This document shows positions 7,570 to 61,965 of a stretch of DNA of 64,000 nucleotides, in pieces. Every line of letters starts with the position of its first letter. Positions within the stretch are counted from its first letter, which is position 1. The position numbers and the translations under genes are program-made. The notes below the pieces were generated by a model. The model did no database searches and was not told where the DNA came from. It worked only from the letters and a program-made list of their open reading frames with translations. Source of the stretch: Chiloscyllium plagiosum (Eukaryota); NCBI RefSeq assembly GCF_004010195.1, contig NC_057719.1, positions 34,969,537 to 35,033,536 on the forward strand. Reading direction: 5' to 3'.

Positions 7570-7790
7570 GAGGCAGAAGTGAGGACTGCAGTTGCTGGAG
7601 ATCAGAGTCAAAAGTGCAGTGCTGGAAAAGCACAGCAGGTCAGGCAGCATCCAATGAGCAGAAGAGATGATGTTTTGGGCATAAGGCTCCATTGCTGATT
7701 TAAGGGCTTCTGCCCGAAATGTCAACTCTCCTGCTCGTCGGATGCTGCCTGACTTGCTGTGCTTTTCCAGCACCACACTCTCGACTCTGC
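7570..7790. mobile_element. Fold-back PLE-derived element, family A
   Basis: 7605-7682 is the reverse complement of about 7705-7788. One-sided tail at about 7572-7604. TCTGCCCTT on both flanks (7557-7565, 7786-7794). Inserted in a minus-strand CR1 remnant. Confidence 0.8.
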
Positions 7791-11094: not shown

Positions 11095-12530
11095 TATGGA
11101 TATAGGTTTGCTCACTGAGCTGGAAGGTTCGTTTTCAGACCTTTCATCACCAAAATAGGTAACATCAGTGAGCCTCAGGATGAAGCCCTGGTGGTAGGGC
11201 CCACTTTCTATTTGTGTTTAGGTTTCCTTTGGTTGGTGATGTCATTTCCTGTTCTCTTTCTTGGGGGATGGTAAATGGAATCCAAGTCAATGTGTTTGTT
11301 GATAGAGTTCCGGTTGGATGCCTTCTAGGAATCCTTGTCAGTGTCTCTGCTTGACTTGTCTTCTGATGCATGTGTTGTCCCAGTCAAAGTGATGTCCTTC
11401 CTCATCTGTATATAAGGATACTAGTGAGAGTGAGTCATGTCTTTTTGTGGCTACTTGATATTCATGTATCCTGGTGGCAAGTTTTCTGCTTGTTTGCCCA
11501 ATGTAGTGTTTGTTACAGTTCTTGCAAGGTATTTTGTAAATTACATTAGTTTTGTTGTCTGCATGGGGTCTTTCAAGTTCATTAGCTGCTGTTTTTAGTG
11601 TGTTGGGGAGGGTGGCTAAGGTTTCTGGACATGTTTAGTTTGGGTTTGTTGGCAGACTGTGTTCATTGGCTAACCGTTCTTTTTGAATACTCTGTATAGG
11701 TGATTTTCCTCTGCTCTTCGTAGTTCCTCTGCTGCAGTGTGTGGAGGCTCATTGAAATAATGTTCACATGCAGCATCGTTTGTGGGTGTTGGGCTGATTG
11801 CTTCTGAAGAAGGGCTTATGCCCGAAACGTCGATTCTCCTGTTCCCTGGATGCTGCCTGACCTGCTGCGCTTTTCCAGCAACACATTTTCAGCTCTGATC
11901 TCCAGCATCTGCAGACCTCACTTTCTCCTCAATGATTGCTTCTGTAGTTCAGTGTTTGGTCTGTATGTGGTGTTTTCCTAGAGATGCTGGTTTGAAGTTC
12001 CCCATTGGCTGTTTGCTGTACTGCAACATCTAGGAATGGCAGTTTGTTGTTGTTTTCCTCTTTAGTGAATTTTATGCCAGTAAGAATATTATTGATGGTC
12101 TTGGAGGTTTCCTCTAATTTGTTTCGTTTAGTGATAAAGGTGTCGTCTACGTAGCGGACCCAAGGTTTGGGTTGGATGGTTGGCAGAGCTGTTTGAGTCT
12201 CTGCATTGCTGCCTCTGCTAAGAACCCTGATGTCAGAGATCCCATGCGTGTTCCATTGGTTTGTCTGTAGGTTTTGTTGTTGAAGGTGGAGTGAGTGGTA
12301 AGGCATAGGTCCACTAGCTCGACAATACTGTCCTTGCTGATGAAGTTGGTGGTGTTTGGTTCTTCTACTAGTGTAGCCATTGTTTCCTTGGCCAGGTTGA
12401 TGTGGATGGATATGAACAGGGCTGTTACGTCAAAGGATACCATTATTTCATCCTTTTCTGTCTTGGTGTCTTTGGTCTTCAGGAATTCTTGGGTAGCGTG
12501 GATGGAATGGCGTTAGTCTTCTACTAAGTG
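11095..12530 (-). mobile_element. Penelope-like element, family C (RT and GIY-YIG, 5'-truncated, frameshifted)
   Basis: MVSFDVTALF, DLCLTTHSTFNNKTYRQTNGTRMGS, WVRYVDDTF and LPFLDV RT motifs. VIYKIPCKNCNKHYIGQT endonuclease motif near 11490-11550. pLTR with decayed hammerhead near 11135-11172. Confidence 0.9.
11804..11831 (+). ncRNA. Minimal type-I hammerhead ribozyme motif (family A insert 11807-11932)
   Basis: CTGAAGA-A-GGGC-TTAT-GCCC-GAAA-CGTC: intact core, 4-bp stem II, palindromic ACGT stem III, GUC triplet; stem I weak. Confidence 0.6.
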
Positions 12531-26067: not shown

Positions 26068-26620
26068 TTTAGATGAGATTAGATTCCCTACAGCGTGGAA
26101 ACAGGCCCTTCGGCCCAACAAGTCCACACCGACCCTCCGAAGAGTAACCCACGGTGGCACAGTGGTTAGCACTGCTGCCTCACAGCGCCAGAGACACGGG
26201 TTCAATTCCCGCCTCAGGCGACTGACTGTGTGGAGTTTGTACATTCTCCCCATGTCTGCGTGGGTTTCCTCCCACAGTCCAAAGATGTGCAGGTTAGGTG
26301 AATTAGCCGTGCTGAAATTGCCCGTAGTGTTTAGGTGAAGGGGAATGGGTCTGGGTGGGTTGCGCTTCGGCGGGTCGGTGTGGACTTGTTGGGCCGAAGG
26401 GCTTGTTTCCACACTGTAAGTAATCTAATCCCTCTGACTAATGCATCTAACACTAGGGGCAATTTAACATGGCTAATTCACCTGACCTGCACATCTTTGG
26501 ACTGTGGAAGGAAACCGGAGCGCCCGGAGGAAACCCACGCAGACACTGGGAGAATATGCAAACTCCACACAGACAGTCCCCTAAGGCTGGAATCGAAACT
26601 AGGACTCTGATGCTGTGATA
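26068..26620. mobile_element. Nested HE1-like tRNA SINEs: + copy (26151-26430) inside a - copy
   Basis: acggtggcacagtggttagcactgctgcctcacagcgccagagac...gggttcaattccc head and taatctaatc tail, flanked by the two halves of an opposite-strand copy. Confidence 0.85.
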
Positions 26621-29378: not shown

Positions 29379-31639
29379 TTTGGAGATGCCGGTGTTGGAC
29401 TGGGGTATACAAAGTTAAAATTCACATGATACCAGGTTGTAGTCCAACAGGTTTATTTGGAAGCACTAGCTTTCGGAATGTTGCTCCTTCATCAGCTGGT
29501 ATATGATCGTAAGACATAGAATTTATAGCAGAAGTTTACAGTGTGATGTAACTGAAATTATATATTGAAAAAGACCTGGATTATTTGTAAAGTCTCTCAT
29601 CTTTTAGAAAGACCATGTTGGTTTCAGTTCTTTCATATGTAAAATCGCAAAACTTTGTTAAAAGTTGCATTCTCAAATGAACTTTCTCGGCTGACATGAC
29701 ACCAATTGTTCATGCATTGAAGGTGTGAGATTGTCTGTACCACAATGGTCAGACTGATTCTAATCTAAAAAACAGATTTACAGAATTTTACGTGGATTCA
29801 TGCAGTTTTTTTGCAAAGTAAAATGTAATTCTGCAAGTACAAATTCACCCACAAACTTGTTTGTATGTATGTTGGGGGGGTGGTGGTCGTGGGGGTGTGA
29901 ATGTCTGAGTGTGTAAAGGGTACAAGTGTGTGAGGGGGTGTGTGTGCAAGTGTATGTGTGAGCGTATGAGAGATGGTGTGTAGGAGTGTGTGTGTGTGTA
30001 GTGCAATGGGGTCACCTGTTGTGTGACATGAACCCAAGATCCCAATTAAGGCCATCCTCATCAGTACCAAACTTGGCTATCAGCCACTGCTCGTTGTTAC
30101 CTGTCCCGAAATCCGCCTTGGAGAACGGTCACCCGAAGGTCCGAGCTCTAATGTCCAGGATCGCTGAAGTGTACTTTGACTAGGAGAGAACACTCCTGTC
30201 TGTTGGTTGTTATGCGGTGTCCGTTCATCCGTGCTGTAGCCTCTGCTTAGTCTCGTCAGTGTACCATGCCTCAGGGCATCCTTGCCTGCAGCATATAAGA
30301 TAAACAATGTTGGAGGAGTCGCATAAGTACCTGCCACATACGTGGGGGAGGTGGCCCCACACGTAATGATGGTGCCCATTCTGACACGTCTTGCAGCATC
30401 TACCGTGACAGGATTGTATGGTGTTGCCCTGAAAGCCAAGCAATTTGCTATGAACAATGATCTGTTTGAGGTTTGATGGTTGTTTAAGGGCGAGAAGTGG
30501 AGGTGTGGGGAAGATCTTGGCGGGGTGTACAACCTCATTGATAATGTATTGCAGGCTGTGAAGAACATGGCATAGGTTTTTGGCTCCTGGGAAGTACTGG
30601 ACAACGAAGGGCACCCTGATTGGTTGCAGCTCGTGTCTGTCTCCTGAGGAGGTCATTACGGTTCCTCGCTGTGGTATGTCGGAACTGATGGTTGATGAGT
30701 TGAGCATCGTACCCTGTTCTTATGAGGGCATCCTTGAATACTTCCAGGTGCCTGTCACATTTCTCCTCATCTGAATAGATCCTGTGTGAAGCGTAGGGCT
30801 TGCTCATAGGGGATGGTTGTTTTAATATGTTTCAGGTGGAAGCTGGAAAAGCATAGCATTGTGAGGTTATCTGGGGTTTGCAGTACAGTGAGGTGCTGAA
30901 GTGCCCATCATTGATGGAGATGCATGTGTCCAAGAATGAGATAGATAATAGAGAGTAGTCCATGGTGCGTTTGGTGGGATGGAACTCATTGATATCACTG
31001 TAGTTGTTTCAGTGACTCCTCGCCATGGGTTCAGAGGAAGAAAATGTCGTCAGTGTATCTGGTGTATAGTGTTGGTTGGAGGTCCTGCGTAGAGAAGAAA
31101 TCTTGTTTGAACCTGTGCATGAGAATGTTGGCATATTGGGGTCACATATGTTTGTGGGATGAATTTATACATGCAGAATTACATTTTACTTTGCTCAAAA
31201 GCTGCATGTCAAATTCTGTAAATCCATTTTTTAGATTAGAATCAGTCTGACCATTGTGGCACAGACAGACAGCCTCACACAGGGCAGCTCACACCTTCAC
31301 TGCATTATCTGGGTCGACATGACCCCAATTGTTAAAGTTCATTTGAGAATGTAACTTTTAAAAACGTTTTGCGATTTGCATATGAAAGAACTGAAACCAA
31401 TGTGGTCATTCTAAAAGATGAGAGACTTTACAAACAATCCTGGTCTTTTTTCAATATACAATATCAGTTATATCACACTGTAAACCTTTGCTATAAAGTC
31501 TGTGTCTTACAATCTTACACACTGGCATCTCCAAATCAATCTTATACTCCACAGCCAACTGATGAAGGAGCAGCACTCCAAAAGCTAGTGCTTCCAATTA
31601 AACCTGTTGGACTATAACCTGGTGTTGTGATTTTTAACT
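29379..31639 (-). mobile_element. Penelope-like element, family B, with inverted pLTRs, RT C-terminus/GIY-YIG and 12-bp TSD
   Basis: TCATTCTCCTGT at 29367-29378 and 31640-31651. About 29413-29850 is inverted at about 31150-31639. Coding remnant PFVVQYFPGAKNL...CKTC...YLCDSSNIVYLICCRQGCPEAWYTDETKQRL. (GT)n-rich tract at 29865-30000. Confidence 0.9.
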
Positions 31640-43280: not shown

Positions 43281-43730
43281 TTTTGGATGTAGGTTTGCTC
43301 ACTAAACTGGAAGATTCATTTTCAGATGTTTCATCACCATACTAGGTAACCTCTTCAGTAAGCCTCCCGATGAAGCACTGCTGATGATTCCTGCTTTCTA
43401 ATTAATGTTTGGGTTTCTTTTGGTTGGTGATGTCATTTCCTGTTTTTTCTCAGGGGGGTGGTAAATGAGGTCCAAGTCAATGTGTTTGTTGATTGAATTC
43501 CGGTTGGAATGCCATGCTTCTCGGAAATCTCGTGCAAGTCTCTGTTTGGCTTGTCCTAGGATGGTTGTGTTGTCCCAGTCGAAGTGGTGTCCTTCCTAGT
43601 AGTATGTAGGGATACTAGTGAGAGAGGGTCATGTCGTTTTGTGGCTAGTTGATGCTCATGTGTCCTGGTGGCTAGTTTTCTGCCTGTTTGTCCAATGTAG
43701 TGTTTGTTACAGTCCTTGCACGGTATTTTT
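43281..43730 (-). mobile_element. Penelope-like element, family C, 3' part (GIY-YIG and pLTR)
   Basis: Clearly homologous to 11095-11535. Minus strand CTGAAGA-G-GTTACC-TAGTAT-GGTGAT-GAAA-CATC at 43324-43358. Confidence 0.85.
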
Positions 43731-56983: not shown

Positions 56984-57027
56984 CCTTCCCTTTTTTCTGT
57001 GTTCCAGGTGTGAGTTTCACCTTGTAT
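56984..57027 (-). CDS. NEMF: NEMF third-from-last coding exon (further exons lie beyond the window)
   Basis: Minus strand atttcag|YKVKLTPGTQKKGK|gtatgt, 44 nt, phases compatible with the next exon. Confidence 0.92.
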
Positions 57028-58331
57028 CTGAAATCGAACAATACAAATTAAACAGTTTAGTTCATGTGTGTCAAATATACTTGTCTCTATTAACTGAATT
57101 TCAGCTACCTCAAAAATGTCAACAGTGCAATGAGTGTTACTAAAATTGCAAAGGTTTCATTCAAGTACAAAACAATCAATATTTGCAAATACATTCTGGT
57201 AAATTAAGTTTAACTTTTTGATTTAGAGACCAGCTGTTTTGTTTAAAGCAAATTTCTATTTGCGCCGTTCTAAAGGGTCACCCGATCCATAATGTTAACT
57301 GATTTCTCTCCACAGATGCTGCCAGACCTGAACTTACTCAACAATGTTTTTTGTTTCTATTTGTGCTTTTGATTTATTCCCCTTAATTACTACATTGTTT
57401 CAAATTTTCTTTCAAACGTTCTTTCCATTTTGTTCTGCCGTTTTGCAACAGACATTTTTTGGGGGGTCAATTGATCGTGGTCACCATTCGGTAGCTTTTA
57501 ATTTGTTATAAACCAGGGAGTGTTAATTGGGAAGAGCTATTATTTCATACGTGGGAATTATTTAAACACCTGCTGATGAGAGTTCAACACTGGCACATTC
57601 CAGTAAGGAGGGAGGACAAGAATGGCAAGGTAAAGGACCCTTGGAAAACAAGAGAGGTTGTGAATTTAGCCAAAATGAAAAAATAAGCAGATGTAAGGTT
57701 CAGGAAGCTAAAATCAGACAGGGCCTGCGAGGAATATAAGGAAAGCATGAAAGTACTTGAGCAGGGAATTAGGAGAGGAAGAAGGGGCCATGAAATTACC
57801 TTGGCAAGTAGAGTTAAAGAGAATTCCAAGGCACTCTATACATATTTTACAAACGAGAATAAACCAGGGAGAAGATAGAACTACTCAAGGATAAAGGAGG
57901 GAACTTGTGCTTGGAAGCAGAGAATGTAGGTGAAATCCTAAATGAGTACTTTGCATCAGTATTCACCCAGGAGAAGGATATAGAGGATTGTGAGATTTGT
58001 ATGGAGCTAATATGCTAGGATTAGTGGTGCTGGAAAAGCACAGCAGTTCAGGCAGCATCCAAGGAGTAGTTTGCTAGGGTATTTTGAGATCAAGAAAGTA
58101 GTATTGTTGGATCTCTTGAGGAGCATTAAGGTAGATAAGTCCCCAGGGCGTGATGGTATCTACTCCAGGTTACTGAAAGAGGCAAGAGAGGAGGAGATTG
58201 TTAGGGCCTTGACCAAGATCTTTGTATCCATGCTAGTCACTGGAAAGGTCCCAGAGGAATGGCAAGTTCCTTTGTTCAAGAAGTGAAACAGGGATGTTGT
58301 GGTTCTGTTCACCGAGCTGGGAATTCGTGTT

Positions 58332-58371
58332 GCAGACGTTTCGTCCCCTGTCTAGGTAACATCCTCAGTGC
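58332..58371 (-). ncRNA. Minimal type-I hammerhead ribozyme (sense in NEMF pre-mRNA)
   Basis: Minus strand GCA-CTGAGGA-T-GTTACC-TAGACA-GGGGAC-GAAA-CGTC-TGC. Confidence 0.72.
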
Positions 58372-58631
58372 TTGGAAGCCTCCTGTGAAGCGCTTCTGTG
58401 ATCTTTCCTCCAGTATTTGTAGTGGTTTGAATCTGCCGTGGTCGGTATATTGGGTCCAGGTCGATGTGCTTATTGATTCATCCACAGATTCAATCAATAA
58501 GCACATCGACCTGGACCCAATATACCGACCACTGCAGCGGACAGCTGGAACTGACAACTGGAAGCGGCAGATTCAAACCACTACAAATGCCAGAGGAAAG
58601 ATCACCAAAGCGCAAAACAGGAGGCTCCCAA

Positions 58632-58669
58632 GCACTGAGGATGTCACCTAGACGGGACGAAACGTCTGC
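58632..58669 (+). ncRNA. Minimal type-I hammerhead ribozyme
   Basis: GCA-CTGAGGA-T-GTCACC-TAGAC-GGGAC-GAAA-CGTC-TGC: stem I GCA/UGC, intact core, stem II, palindromic stem III, GUC site at 58664-58666. Confidence 0.75.
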
Positions 58670-61079
58670 AACACAAATTCCCAGCTCGGCGAACAGAACC
58701 ACAACAACGAGCACCCGAGCTACAAATCTTCTCACAAACTTTGAAATAGGGATAATTCAGGAAACTACAGACCAGCGAGTCTCACATTGGTGGTTGGGAA
58801 GCTATTGGAGAGAATTCCTAAGGATAGGATTTATGCACATTTTGAAAAACATGGCCTAATTGGGGTCAGTCAACATGGCTTTGTGCAGGTCAGGTCATGT
58901 CTTACCAACTTAATTGAATTTTTTTTCAGGTGGCAGCAAAGGTGATCAATGTGGGTAGAGTAGTGGATGTTGTTTACATGGATTTTAGTATGGCTTTTGA
59001 CAAGGTTCCTCATCGTAGAAGATAAAGATGCATGGGAGTCATGGATTCAGAATCGGCTTACCCATAGAAGACAGAGGGTAGTGGTGGAAGGGTGTTTTTC
59101 AGGCTGAAGGTCAGTGATTTGTAGTGTTTTGCAGGGATCCGTACTGGGACCTTGGCTGTTTGTAATAGATATCAGTGACTTAGATGAACATACAGATGGG
59201 TGGGTTAATAAATTTGCAGATGATACAAAGATTGGTGGAGTTGTGGTTAGTGAAGGAGGCTGACAGGGTACAGCGGCATACAGATCAGTTATAGATATGG
59301 GTGGAGAAATGACGGATGGAGTTTACTCTGGTTAGTGTGAGGTGCTGCAGTTTGGGAGATCAAATGTTAAGGTAAAGTATACAGTTAATGGCAGTACTCT
59401 GAACACTGGTGTACAGAAGGATCTTAAAATTCAAGTCCATAGCTCCCTGAAATTGGGTACTTAAGTAGATAGGGTGGTAAAGGCGGCATTTGGCATGCTT
59501 GGTTGGGGAAATGAGTATAAGCGACATGATGTCATGTTGCAGCTTTATAAGAATTTGGTTAGACCACACTTAGAGTATTGCATTCAGTTCTGTTCACCAC
59601 ATTACAGAAAGGATGTGGAGGCTTTGCAGAGAGTTCAGAAGAGGTTTACCAGGATGTTGCCTGGATTAGAGAGAGTATGAGCTATAAGGAGGCTAGAAAA
59701 ACTCAGGTTGTTTTCTTGAGGCTGAGGGGAGAATAGAAGATAATAAAATTATGAGATGCATAGACAGGGTTGACAGTCAAAGTTTTTCCCAGAATTGAAA
59801 TGTTTAATACTAGGGGCATGCATTTAAGGTGAGAGGAGGAAAGTGCAAAGGAGTTGTGAGGGGCAAGTTTTTTTTTAAAATGCAGAGAGTTGTAGGAGTC
59901 TGAAACGCACTGCCAGGGGTTGTGGTTGAGGCAGATACAATAAGGGCATTTAAGGGACTTTTAAATAAGCACATGAATATGGAGGGATATAGATCAAGGG
60001 CAGTCAGAAGGGATTAGTTCCATTTGGTATGATGTTTGGCACAATATCATGGGTTGAAGGGCCTGTTCCTGTGTTGTATTGTTCTATGTTCTCCTACTTG
60101 AAAGCAAAATTAAAAACCTTCCGGACTCTGTGAGAGCTCTGACACCACCCACTCTTGTCTCATTTAAAAAAAAACACCCAGGGAAAATTCAAAAGCTGTT
60201 TACCAACTGTCTGAAGGAGACATTCTACTCCCACTGTGGCAAAAGTCCTCTACAAGAGAAACAGCACTAAACACTACTCTCTTAAAGACATAATCTCATC
60301 ACAAATTCCAGATTATTTTTATTTAATTCAAATTTTACCCTCTGCCATGGTGGTTCTGGGTAACTGGTCAAGTGACACTGCTACTACATCACCCACCATT
60401 TAAGGTTTATACACTCTGTCCATTAATTTCCTTTCTCAGTGCTTTATGGTGGCATTGTCACTTGCCTAGTAATCTAGAACCAGGTTTCACAGACAGTGAA
60501 ATGTGAATTAAATAAAATCTGGAATTTACAACTACCAAATGGTGACCATCCTTATCTGGTCAGCCCTACAAGAGACTCAGGGCTTACAGCAATGTGGTTG
60601 ACTCTTAAGTGCTTTCTAAAACGTCTGAGCAAGCCATCTGTTCAAGGGAAGTTAAGGATGGGCAATAAATGCTGGCCAAGCATGATGCTCACATTCCATG
60701 AACAAATTTAATAACAAAGTATTTTTTTAAAAAAAAACAATTTTAATAAAGCTTCAGTGGACCTGAAATGTTAACTCTCTCCACTGTAATTCCAAATGGC
60801 AACAGGATTAGGCCAGTTGACTCTGCTTGTTTAATACAACTGTGATTGATGGAACAATTCAATGCCTTTTACCCACATTATCCTCATAACCCTTTATGCC
60901 ATTGGGAGTTAGAAATCCATGAATATCTACCTTAAACATATTTTAAACGACTGAAGTTCCACAGCCATCTGAATTATTGAATATTTGGAATTCTGTATTT
61001 ATCTGTGAACAAATGTGTCCTCATCTTGGTCCTTAATTTCATATTTTGCCCCATTCTACATTCCCCAACCAGGACAATC

Positions 61080-61965
61080 ACCACCAGGACATCGCTGTGG
61101 GAGTTCCTCAGACTAGTCTCCTCGGCCCAACAATCTTCAGCTAATTCATCAATGACCTCCCTCTATCATAATGTAGGAAGTGGGGATGCTTGTCAATGAT
61201 TTCCCAATGTTCAGCACCATTCACAACTCCTCAGATACTGAAGCAGTCAATACATGTCCAAATGCAGCAAAACAACATTCATGATTGGGCTGAAAAGTGG
61301 CAACATGTTACACAAATGCCAGGCAATGACCATCTCTGGCAAGAGAAAATTGAACCATCACCCCATGACATTCAATGGTGGTTCCATTATTAATATCCTG
61401 GGGGTTACCACTGACCAGAAACTCAACTGGACTCTCCATATAAAATGCAGTGATTACAAAAGCAGGACAGAAGCTAGGAATACTGCAGTGAGTAACTCCC
61501 ATCCTGACTCCCCAGTGCCTGCTCACCATTTACAAGGAACAAATCAGGAGTGTGATGGAATAATTACCACTTGTCTGGATGGGTGCAACTCCAACAACAA
61601 AAATTTTTGACACATTCAGAACAGAGCAGCTTGCTTGATTGGCACCACATCCACAAACATCAAACCACTCCAACACCAAAGCTCAGTGGCAGCAATATGA
61701 ATTATCTACAAAATGTACTGCATAAATTCACCAAAATTGTTAGTAGCCCCTTCTAAACTCACAACCACCCCCCCCCCCTCCATGTCGAAAGATAGGGGCA
61801 GATCAGCAGATACATGGAAACACCACCACCTGCAAGTTCCCCTCCAAGCCACACTTGGAAATGTTGCTGGGTCAACATCCTGGAATTCCCTCCCTAATGG
61901 CATTTTGACTCTACTTATAGTATATGGACTGTGATTCAAGAAGGCAGCTCACCACCAACTTTCAA
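61080..61965 (+). mobile_element. Decayed CR1/L2-group LINE 3' portion
   Basis: DWAEKWQ, KCQAMTIS and INILGVTTDQKLNW motifs. Confidence 0.7.

Follow-up and report, generated by a model that had tools for sequence, protein, structure and literature searches.

The window analysed here, a stretch of 64,000 nucleotides, carries the NEMF gene on its minus strand, with Pfam NFACT_N and NFACT-C matches on either side of a palindromic insertion at 58284-58753 (all positions are those of the window). The insertion lies in an intron of approximately 9.1 kb, about 1.27 kb from the 3' splice site as read directly from the exon ends, and the next NEMF intron is spliced out in runs X3 and X21. It interrupts a LINE fragment, which by eye we take to be CR1-like; the LINE frame is continuous across the site once the insertion is removed, and the right LINE flank gives a weak RVT_1 match (E=2e-4). 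The same LINE holds, at 58018-58066 and 230 bp from the insertion, a 49-bp fragment of another repeat, which is very abundant and has nine further matches in the window, one of them beside a hammerhead motif at 11804. A 32-bp piece of another high-copy repeat is found at 57299-57330, where loose contig ends run into sequence resembling the 3' half of a hammerhead.

The features of the locus are collected in Table 1. The palindrome is formed by two arms, 58296-58478 and 58492-58705, which are inverted copies of each other. They are separated by a 13-nt centre, representing the surplus 5' sequence of the longer (right) copy, and are followed on one side by a tail. The whole is enclosed by a target site duplication (TSD) of 12 bp with one mismatch; the opening 3-4 letters of the right TSD copy equal the usual 3' end of the family and are, therefore, ambiguous. 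The observed/expected ratio of CpG is 0.73 in the insertion vs. 0.11 and 0.22 in the flanking LINE. A preliminary description of this DNA had already reported the palindrome arms, the 13-nt centre, a 36-nt tail, the 12-bp TSD, the retained CpGs and the position in a NEMF intron, and all of these were confirmed. It also called the arms near-perfect, and they are indeed inverted copies, but this wording is generous since they mismatch at 12 of the 182 aligned bases (6.6%) and since, besides the 33 nt missing from the left arm, the right arm lacks 2 nt relative to its partner, a loss that had gone unmentioned. Compared with the family majority, the arms diverge by 2.4% and 3.8%, the left arm having 7 substitutions in 182 bases. 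The junction of the 33-nt deletion occurs only once in the genome search, and an origin of the left arm from a subfamily carrying this deletion was rejected on that ground. The clustered changes of the right arm, which form two clusters, were also found once in the genome and were discarded as a subfamily marker; they represent real multi-base changes or assembly errors. At 58605-58615 the family majority has a perfect 10-bp palindrome, which these two clusters break in the right arm.

Table 1. Features of the NEMF intron insertion and its surroundings (window coordinates).
Feature	Position	Strand	Basis
NEMF exon, 44 nt, next after the host intron	56984..57027	-	Spliced junction 56899/56984 in runs X3 and X21
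Left TSD copy, 12 bp, within old CR1-like LINE fragment	58284..58295	.	Flanks, LINE frame
Inverted, 5'-truncated copy of the element 3' end, without tail	58296..58478	-	Arm alignment, family comparison
Minimal type I hammerhead motif, NEMF-sense, predicted cut after C58335	58332..58371	-	Core, fold
5' truncation point of the longer copy and 13-nt unpaired centre, with 1-nt junction overlap	58478..58491	+	Family contigs with loose ends at 58478
C-terminal coding end and stop codon of the RT-GIY-YIG ORF	58478..58648	+	Frame 1 equals the ORF end in L041, L057 and L058
Minimal type I hammerhead motif, antisense to NEMF, predicted cut after C58666	58632..58669	+	2-nt deletion in stem II
Tail on one side, of 36-39 nt according to the TSD overlap assigned to it (58706-58741 if 36)	58706..58744	+	Stops at the common family 3' end
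Right TSD copy, 1 mismatch, 3-4 letters overlapping the family 3' end	58742..58753	.	Junction comparison

A genome search returned 1822 candidate copies of the sequence, 40 of which were scored, and apart from the 58284-58753 locus itself the scored copies are 94-96% identical. The right arm opens with the final codons and the stop of an ORF, and longer family copies, when followed upstream, carry a GIY-YIG endonuclease with CCHH residues as well as reverse transcriptase (RT) motifs, which we recognised by eye in the translations and take to be such. In the longer copy L057, which has the RT motifs, the match to RVT_1 has an E-value of 1.1e-6 and 29 bits against a cut-off of 29.6, and its RT region reaches Atlas scores of 0.94-0.96 to eukaryotic RT clusters. 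The endonuclease region matches the Pfam GIY-YIG family below the cut-off (E 0.04-0.13), and the Atlas neighbours of the family protein are characterized by PF26215 (96%) and GIY-YIG (15-24%); a PDB sequence search with the family protein gave no match. In the translations of the longer copies, examined by eye, a zinc-finger linker between the RT and the endonuclease is absent. Neptune and Nematis elements possess such an extra linker according to the description in PMC8557442, by which its absence points to the Penelope/Poseidon clade. The family would, on these sequence features, be an endonuclease-bearing element of Penelope/Poseidon type. Among 20 RT-region loci no full-length family copy was found, and none of the 20 revealed a full-length element with a direct upstream repeat, for which a hammerhead was sought within approximately 1.5 kb. 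In the literature searched both the family and the locus are unnamed, and the supplements of PMC4209133 and PMC11167929, Repbase or Dfam may list them. In run X21, family RNA reads at 58619-58719 run in one direction by about 10 to 1, which is probably the sense of the element, and derive from other copies.

The architecture of the locus is shared by many of its relatives. An inverted, 5'-truncated partner was encountered upstream in 22 of 30 loci (the 58284-58753 locus included), a proportion that is not an unbiased genome rate since similarity to the right arm was the criterion by which the loci had been selected. In 9 of these 22 loci the inverted copy stops, at its outer end, 36-38 nt before the 3' end is reached, and in none of the 22 does it have a tail. 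TSDs, mostly of 10-15 bp, occur in 19 of the 30 loci vs. 3 of 870 cross-locus controls, and the inverted hammerhead 9-mer is also present upstream in 9 of the 20 RT-region loci. In four loci (L011, L012, L013, and L029) the distance from the end of the inverted copy to the 3' end is 56-58 nt, which may mark a third preferred start point. An inverted 5'-truncated copy and a tail of 30-40 bp have been described for Penelope-like elements (PMC8557442; PMC3846280). The head-to-head palindrome is, thus, the norm in this family and the standard, already described insertion form of Penelope-like elements. With its long inverted arms, TSD and hammerheads, the locus is also reminiscent of a separate palindromic element (a MITE, foldback element or retrozyme) that would move as a unit of 446 bp. 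Such an origin is hardly conceivable, however, since no two copies agree in arm length and centre (the direct arm measuring 260-826 nt and the inverted arm 24-765 nt), both the junction of the 33-nt deletion and the variant of the right arm are singletons in the genome, and the arms are the coding ends of an RT-endonuclease ORF. Retrozymes, moreover, require tandem head-to-tail units by the account in bioRxiv 10.64898/2026.07.22.740005, and no such units occur here.

We consider it extremely improbable that the palindrome is an assembly artefact, i.e., a fold-back chimera. None of the contigs listed spans the centre or the right junction, and the two odd clusters of changes in the right arm, being unique in the genome, could be local consensus errors, both of which would fit an artefact. 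A fold-back would, however, copy one arm, while 12 substitutions and two deletions set the arms apart; the TSD encloses the whole insertion, and 21 of the 29 other copies show the same design. Contigs of two other samples also enter the inverted arm: the contig of X3 record 21 crosses the left junction by 10 letters with no difference, and that of X10 record 13, which belongs to a second species, reaches 25 letters beyond it and shows 9 differences in 279, both crossings being short of the 31-letter rule for spanning. It is the combination of the TSD, the independent decay of the arms and these left-junction contigs that makes an artefact so unlikely. The contig of X3 record 21 covers 58040-58305, with an exact match to the flank and the 10 left-arm letters, followed by 64 letters that do not match there. 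Since X3 holds the spliced NEMF junction at high depth, this contig may be RNA, and the 64 letters may reflect an allele, a heavily edited transcript, or sequence that belongs on the other arm. Splicing of the upstream NEMF exon to a cryptic acceptor at 58305 was considered for this record and rejected, because the AA at the end of that exon does not fit and the acceptor has few pyrimidines.

The preliminary description also called the insertion young. This holds relative to the host LINE, but the left junction seems to be shared with a related species, and, if it is indeed common to the two species, the insertion predates their split. No empty orthologous site was seen among the 15 of 252 joint rows listed. 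If the host is a shark, the rate of 7e-10 per base per generation given in PMC10587355 would make the divergence of the arms old in years. Of the six changes in the right arm, five belong to the two clusters that occur once in the genome and, consequently, the divergence may overstate the age.

Both arms retain the hammerhead core (CUGAGGA and GAAAC-GUC) and a stem I of 3 bp (GCA/UGC), and in both there is an extra base after position 9, a G10.1-C11.1 pair, and an ACGU palindrome (15.2-16.2) in place of stem III. Stem II of the left-arm motif, which is NEMF-sense, has 6 pairs including one U-G, and in the right-arm motif, which is antisense to NEMF, a 2-nt deletion has reduced the 6 pairs to 4. 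Each strand yields one hammerhead, one intact core per arm, in agreement with the preliminary description. An Rfam scan at the gathering score produced no hits in the whole 64,000-nt window. Minimal hammerheads paired on opposite strands at distances of 100-700 bp have been reported (PMC4209133), and for such motifs the same source describes no cleavage of the monomer and weak or little cleavage of the dimer. The ribozyme of the Anolis element requires the element protein and is dispensable for insertion, according to PMC11167929.

Within the window, no long palindrome other than 58284-58753 has two intact cores. The earlier designation of this locus as the best-preserved candidate does not hold for the family: the ribozyme is unaltered in 15 of the 29 other top copies, 25 of these 29 are closer to the family majority, and the arm divergence of the locus (6.6%) exceeds that of 18 of 21 other inverted insertions. 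Five of these 21 insertions likewise retain both cores together with stem I, all with a lower arm divergence. The fragment that had been proposed for a cleavage test, 58620-58680, contains the damaged motif with the 2-nt deletion in stem II, which is antisense to NEMF. Further hammerhead-like motifs, apparently of other repeat families, occur at 11804-11831 (+), 29467-29495 (-), 43325-43358 (-), and 61195-61234 (-), the first three with no inverted partner within approximately 250 bp. Other short-range inverted repeats in the window, 76-91% alike, are located at 182-998, 7603-7789, and 26077-26618.

Computed folding gives -334.5 kcal/mol for 58284-58753 with z = -30, and none of 100 shuffled sequences was as stable. 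In the computed fold the hammerhead core bases are paired with the other arm with a probability of about 1.0, and imposing the ribozyme fold inside the hairpin costs 69-73 kcal/mol; the predicted sequestration of the hammerhead in a hairpin of the NEMF pre-mRNA is, thus, borne out by these calculations. Relative to two monomers, an isolated double hammerhead is less stable by 5.5 (left) or 12.9 (right) kcal/mol, and the 9.1-kb intron contains no same-sense intact hammerhead partner, its one further motif, at 61234, being degenerate. The cost of roughly 70 kcal/mol, the missing same-sense partner and the penalty on the double hammerhead together make silence the best explanation, and the ribozyme in the NEMF intron most likely does not cleave and would be a neutral passenger. 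Editing of the hairpin by ADAR, or its dicing, is plausible by analogy, with a precedent in PMC5625713, where Penelope is described as heavily edited in a lizard and palindromic repeats as edited on their own in a frog.

This precedent could also be taken to suggest that the hairpin is a working regulator of NEMF, either because ADAR or a protein opens it so that the left-arm hammerhead cuts the pre-mRNA, or through small RNAs. In the NEMF-sense ribozyme the core and a stem II of 6 pairs are preserved, helices of 53, 41, and 37 bp occur in the minus-strand fold, and the left junction seems to be retained in the second species (X10 record 13), all of which would suit such a function. We nevertheless regard it as highly unlikely, given the energy barrier, the penalty of 5.5 kcal/mol and the lack of an intact same-sense partner discussed above, and the decay of the arms is no slower than in other copies. 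Read ends do not pile up at the locus, and in the DNA-type run X1 the listed differences of A>G and T>C type are present as well; both results concern reads derived from other family copies. The locus is swamped by thousands of such copies, and 99% of the RNA reads (2% of the run was read) continue unlike it.

Taken together, we interpret the locus, with a probability of roughly 0.93, as a dead, 5'-truncated insertion of Penelope/Poseidon type with an inverted, tail-less second copy, in which the ribozyme is predicted to be silent. It may have formed as follows. The GIY-YIG endonuclease would nick both strands approximately 12-13 bp apart, and reverse transcription would begin at the two start points already known, one at each boundary of the tail, with one copy produced per nick. 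Both copies would stop early and their 5' ends would be joined, resulting in a head-to-head pair with a one-sided tail and a TSD around the whole. Because the motif belongs to the terminal repeat of the element, each copy carries a minimal hammerhead. On either strand the ribozyme in the 3' arm would be made after its complement and is, consequently, predicted to pair into the hairpin. A second same-sense copy would be needed for stem III, of which the intron has no intact one, and incidental editing of the hairpin by ADAR may occur. Cutting and extension of both strands, and two RT starts bounding the tail, are described in PMC11167929, while self-priming has been proposed instead of two primings (PMC3846280); published accounts of the priming route, thus, diverge.

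Variants shared between the arms provide information on the number of templates. For 30 loci with an arm overlap of at least 40 nt, taken from 58 distinct loci and with gap-adjacent positions dropped, 21 of 45 variants (47%) at 15 non-CpG subfamily sites are common to both arms, whereas 2000 permutations gave 16% on average and 36% at most; of the private variants, 8 are common to both arms and 124 are not. The excess over the permutations indicates a single template or lineage as the usual source of both arms. In three of the 30 loci (L017, L028, and L051) two to four subfamily variants are confined to the inverted arm, which is as expected if two RNAs were used, a possible explanation; the same picture could arise from recurrent mutation, from conversion, or from repeats wrongly joined in the assembly. 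The arms of the 58284-58753 locus have no derived variant in common and are uninformative in this respect. A broader scheme, which we put forward as a speculation that is rather doubtful at present, is that a dimeric protein primes two cDNAs, one per nick, at the boundaries of the tail and possibly from two RNAs, so that the insertions bury their own ribozyme and supply a hairpin to ADAR. In primates, pairs of inverted Alu repeats are ADAR substrates. If this two-priming scheme is true, the hairpins may let thousands of insertions sit in introns.

The single locus matters little, given that at least 1,800 candidate copies exist and that it is among the more decayed. The architecture, the minimal hammerheads on opposite strands, the inactive monomer and the editing of Penelope RNA were all known already, and the locus is a new instance of them. 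The family as a whole is more useful: its thousands of lightly diverged, TSD-flanked inverted insertions allow a statistical test of the origin of the inverted copy, which could weigh self-priming vs. two primings and one RNA vs. two. It also forms a good set for asking whether Penelope hairpins are a main ADAR target in this lineage.

With the insertion units described for Penelope-like elements (PMC8557442; PMC3846280) the locus shares the head-to-head geometry, the one-sided tail, the enclosing TSD and the 5' truncation. It differs from these in that both copies are very short, which leaves an almost pure hairpin with a 13-nt centre, and the TSDs of the present family are mostly 10-15 bp vs. 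8-10 bp in the rotifer examples described. Non-LTR retrozymes, as presented in bioRxiv 10.64898/2026.07.22.740005, likewise contain a type I hammerhead of Penelope-like origin, although they are tandem head-to-tail arrays with at least two same-sense ribozymes, whereas the copies here are head-to-head with one ribozyme per strand. The editing targets described in PMC5625713, Harbinger in the frog and Penelope in the lizard, resemble the locus in that a single insertion forms its own long dsRNA with a short loop, here by predicted fold. The closest resemblance in the ribozyme itself is to the minimal type I hammerheads of metazoan Penelope-like elements described in PMC4209133, with which our motifs, known from their sequence, have in common the core boxes, the extra base between 9 and 10.1, the G10.1-C11.1 pair, a long stem II, the palindromic 15.2-16.2, the absence of loop 3 and the pairing on opposite strands. 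Stem I is 3 bp here vs. 4-5 bp in the schistosome motifs of that study, and stem II of the right-arm copy is 2 nt shorter. Poseidon of Anolis (PAc), as described in PMC11167929, likewise has an ATG at the start of stem II (here at 58641), and the cut site follows this ATG by 26-28 nt here vs. 26 in PAc. The 3' ends of the copies fall at +104 to +106 here, compared with RT starts at +111 to +118 in PAc, and a tail between two stop points is, likened by position, common to the present family and PAc.
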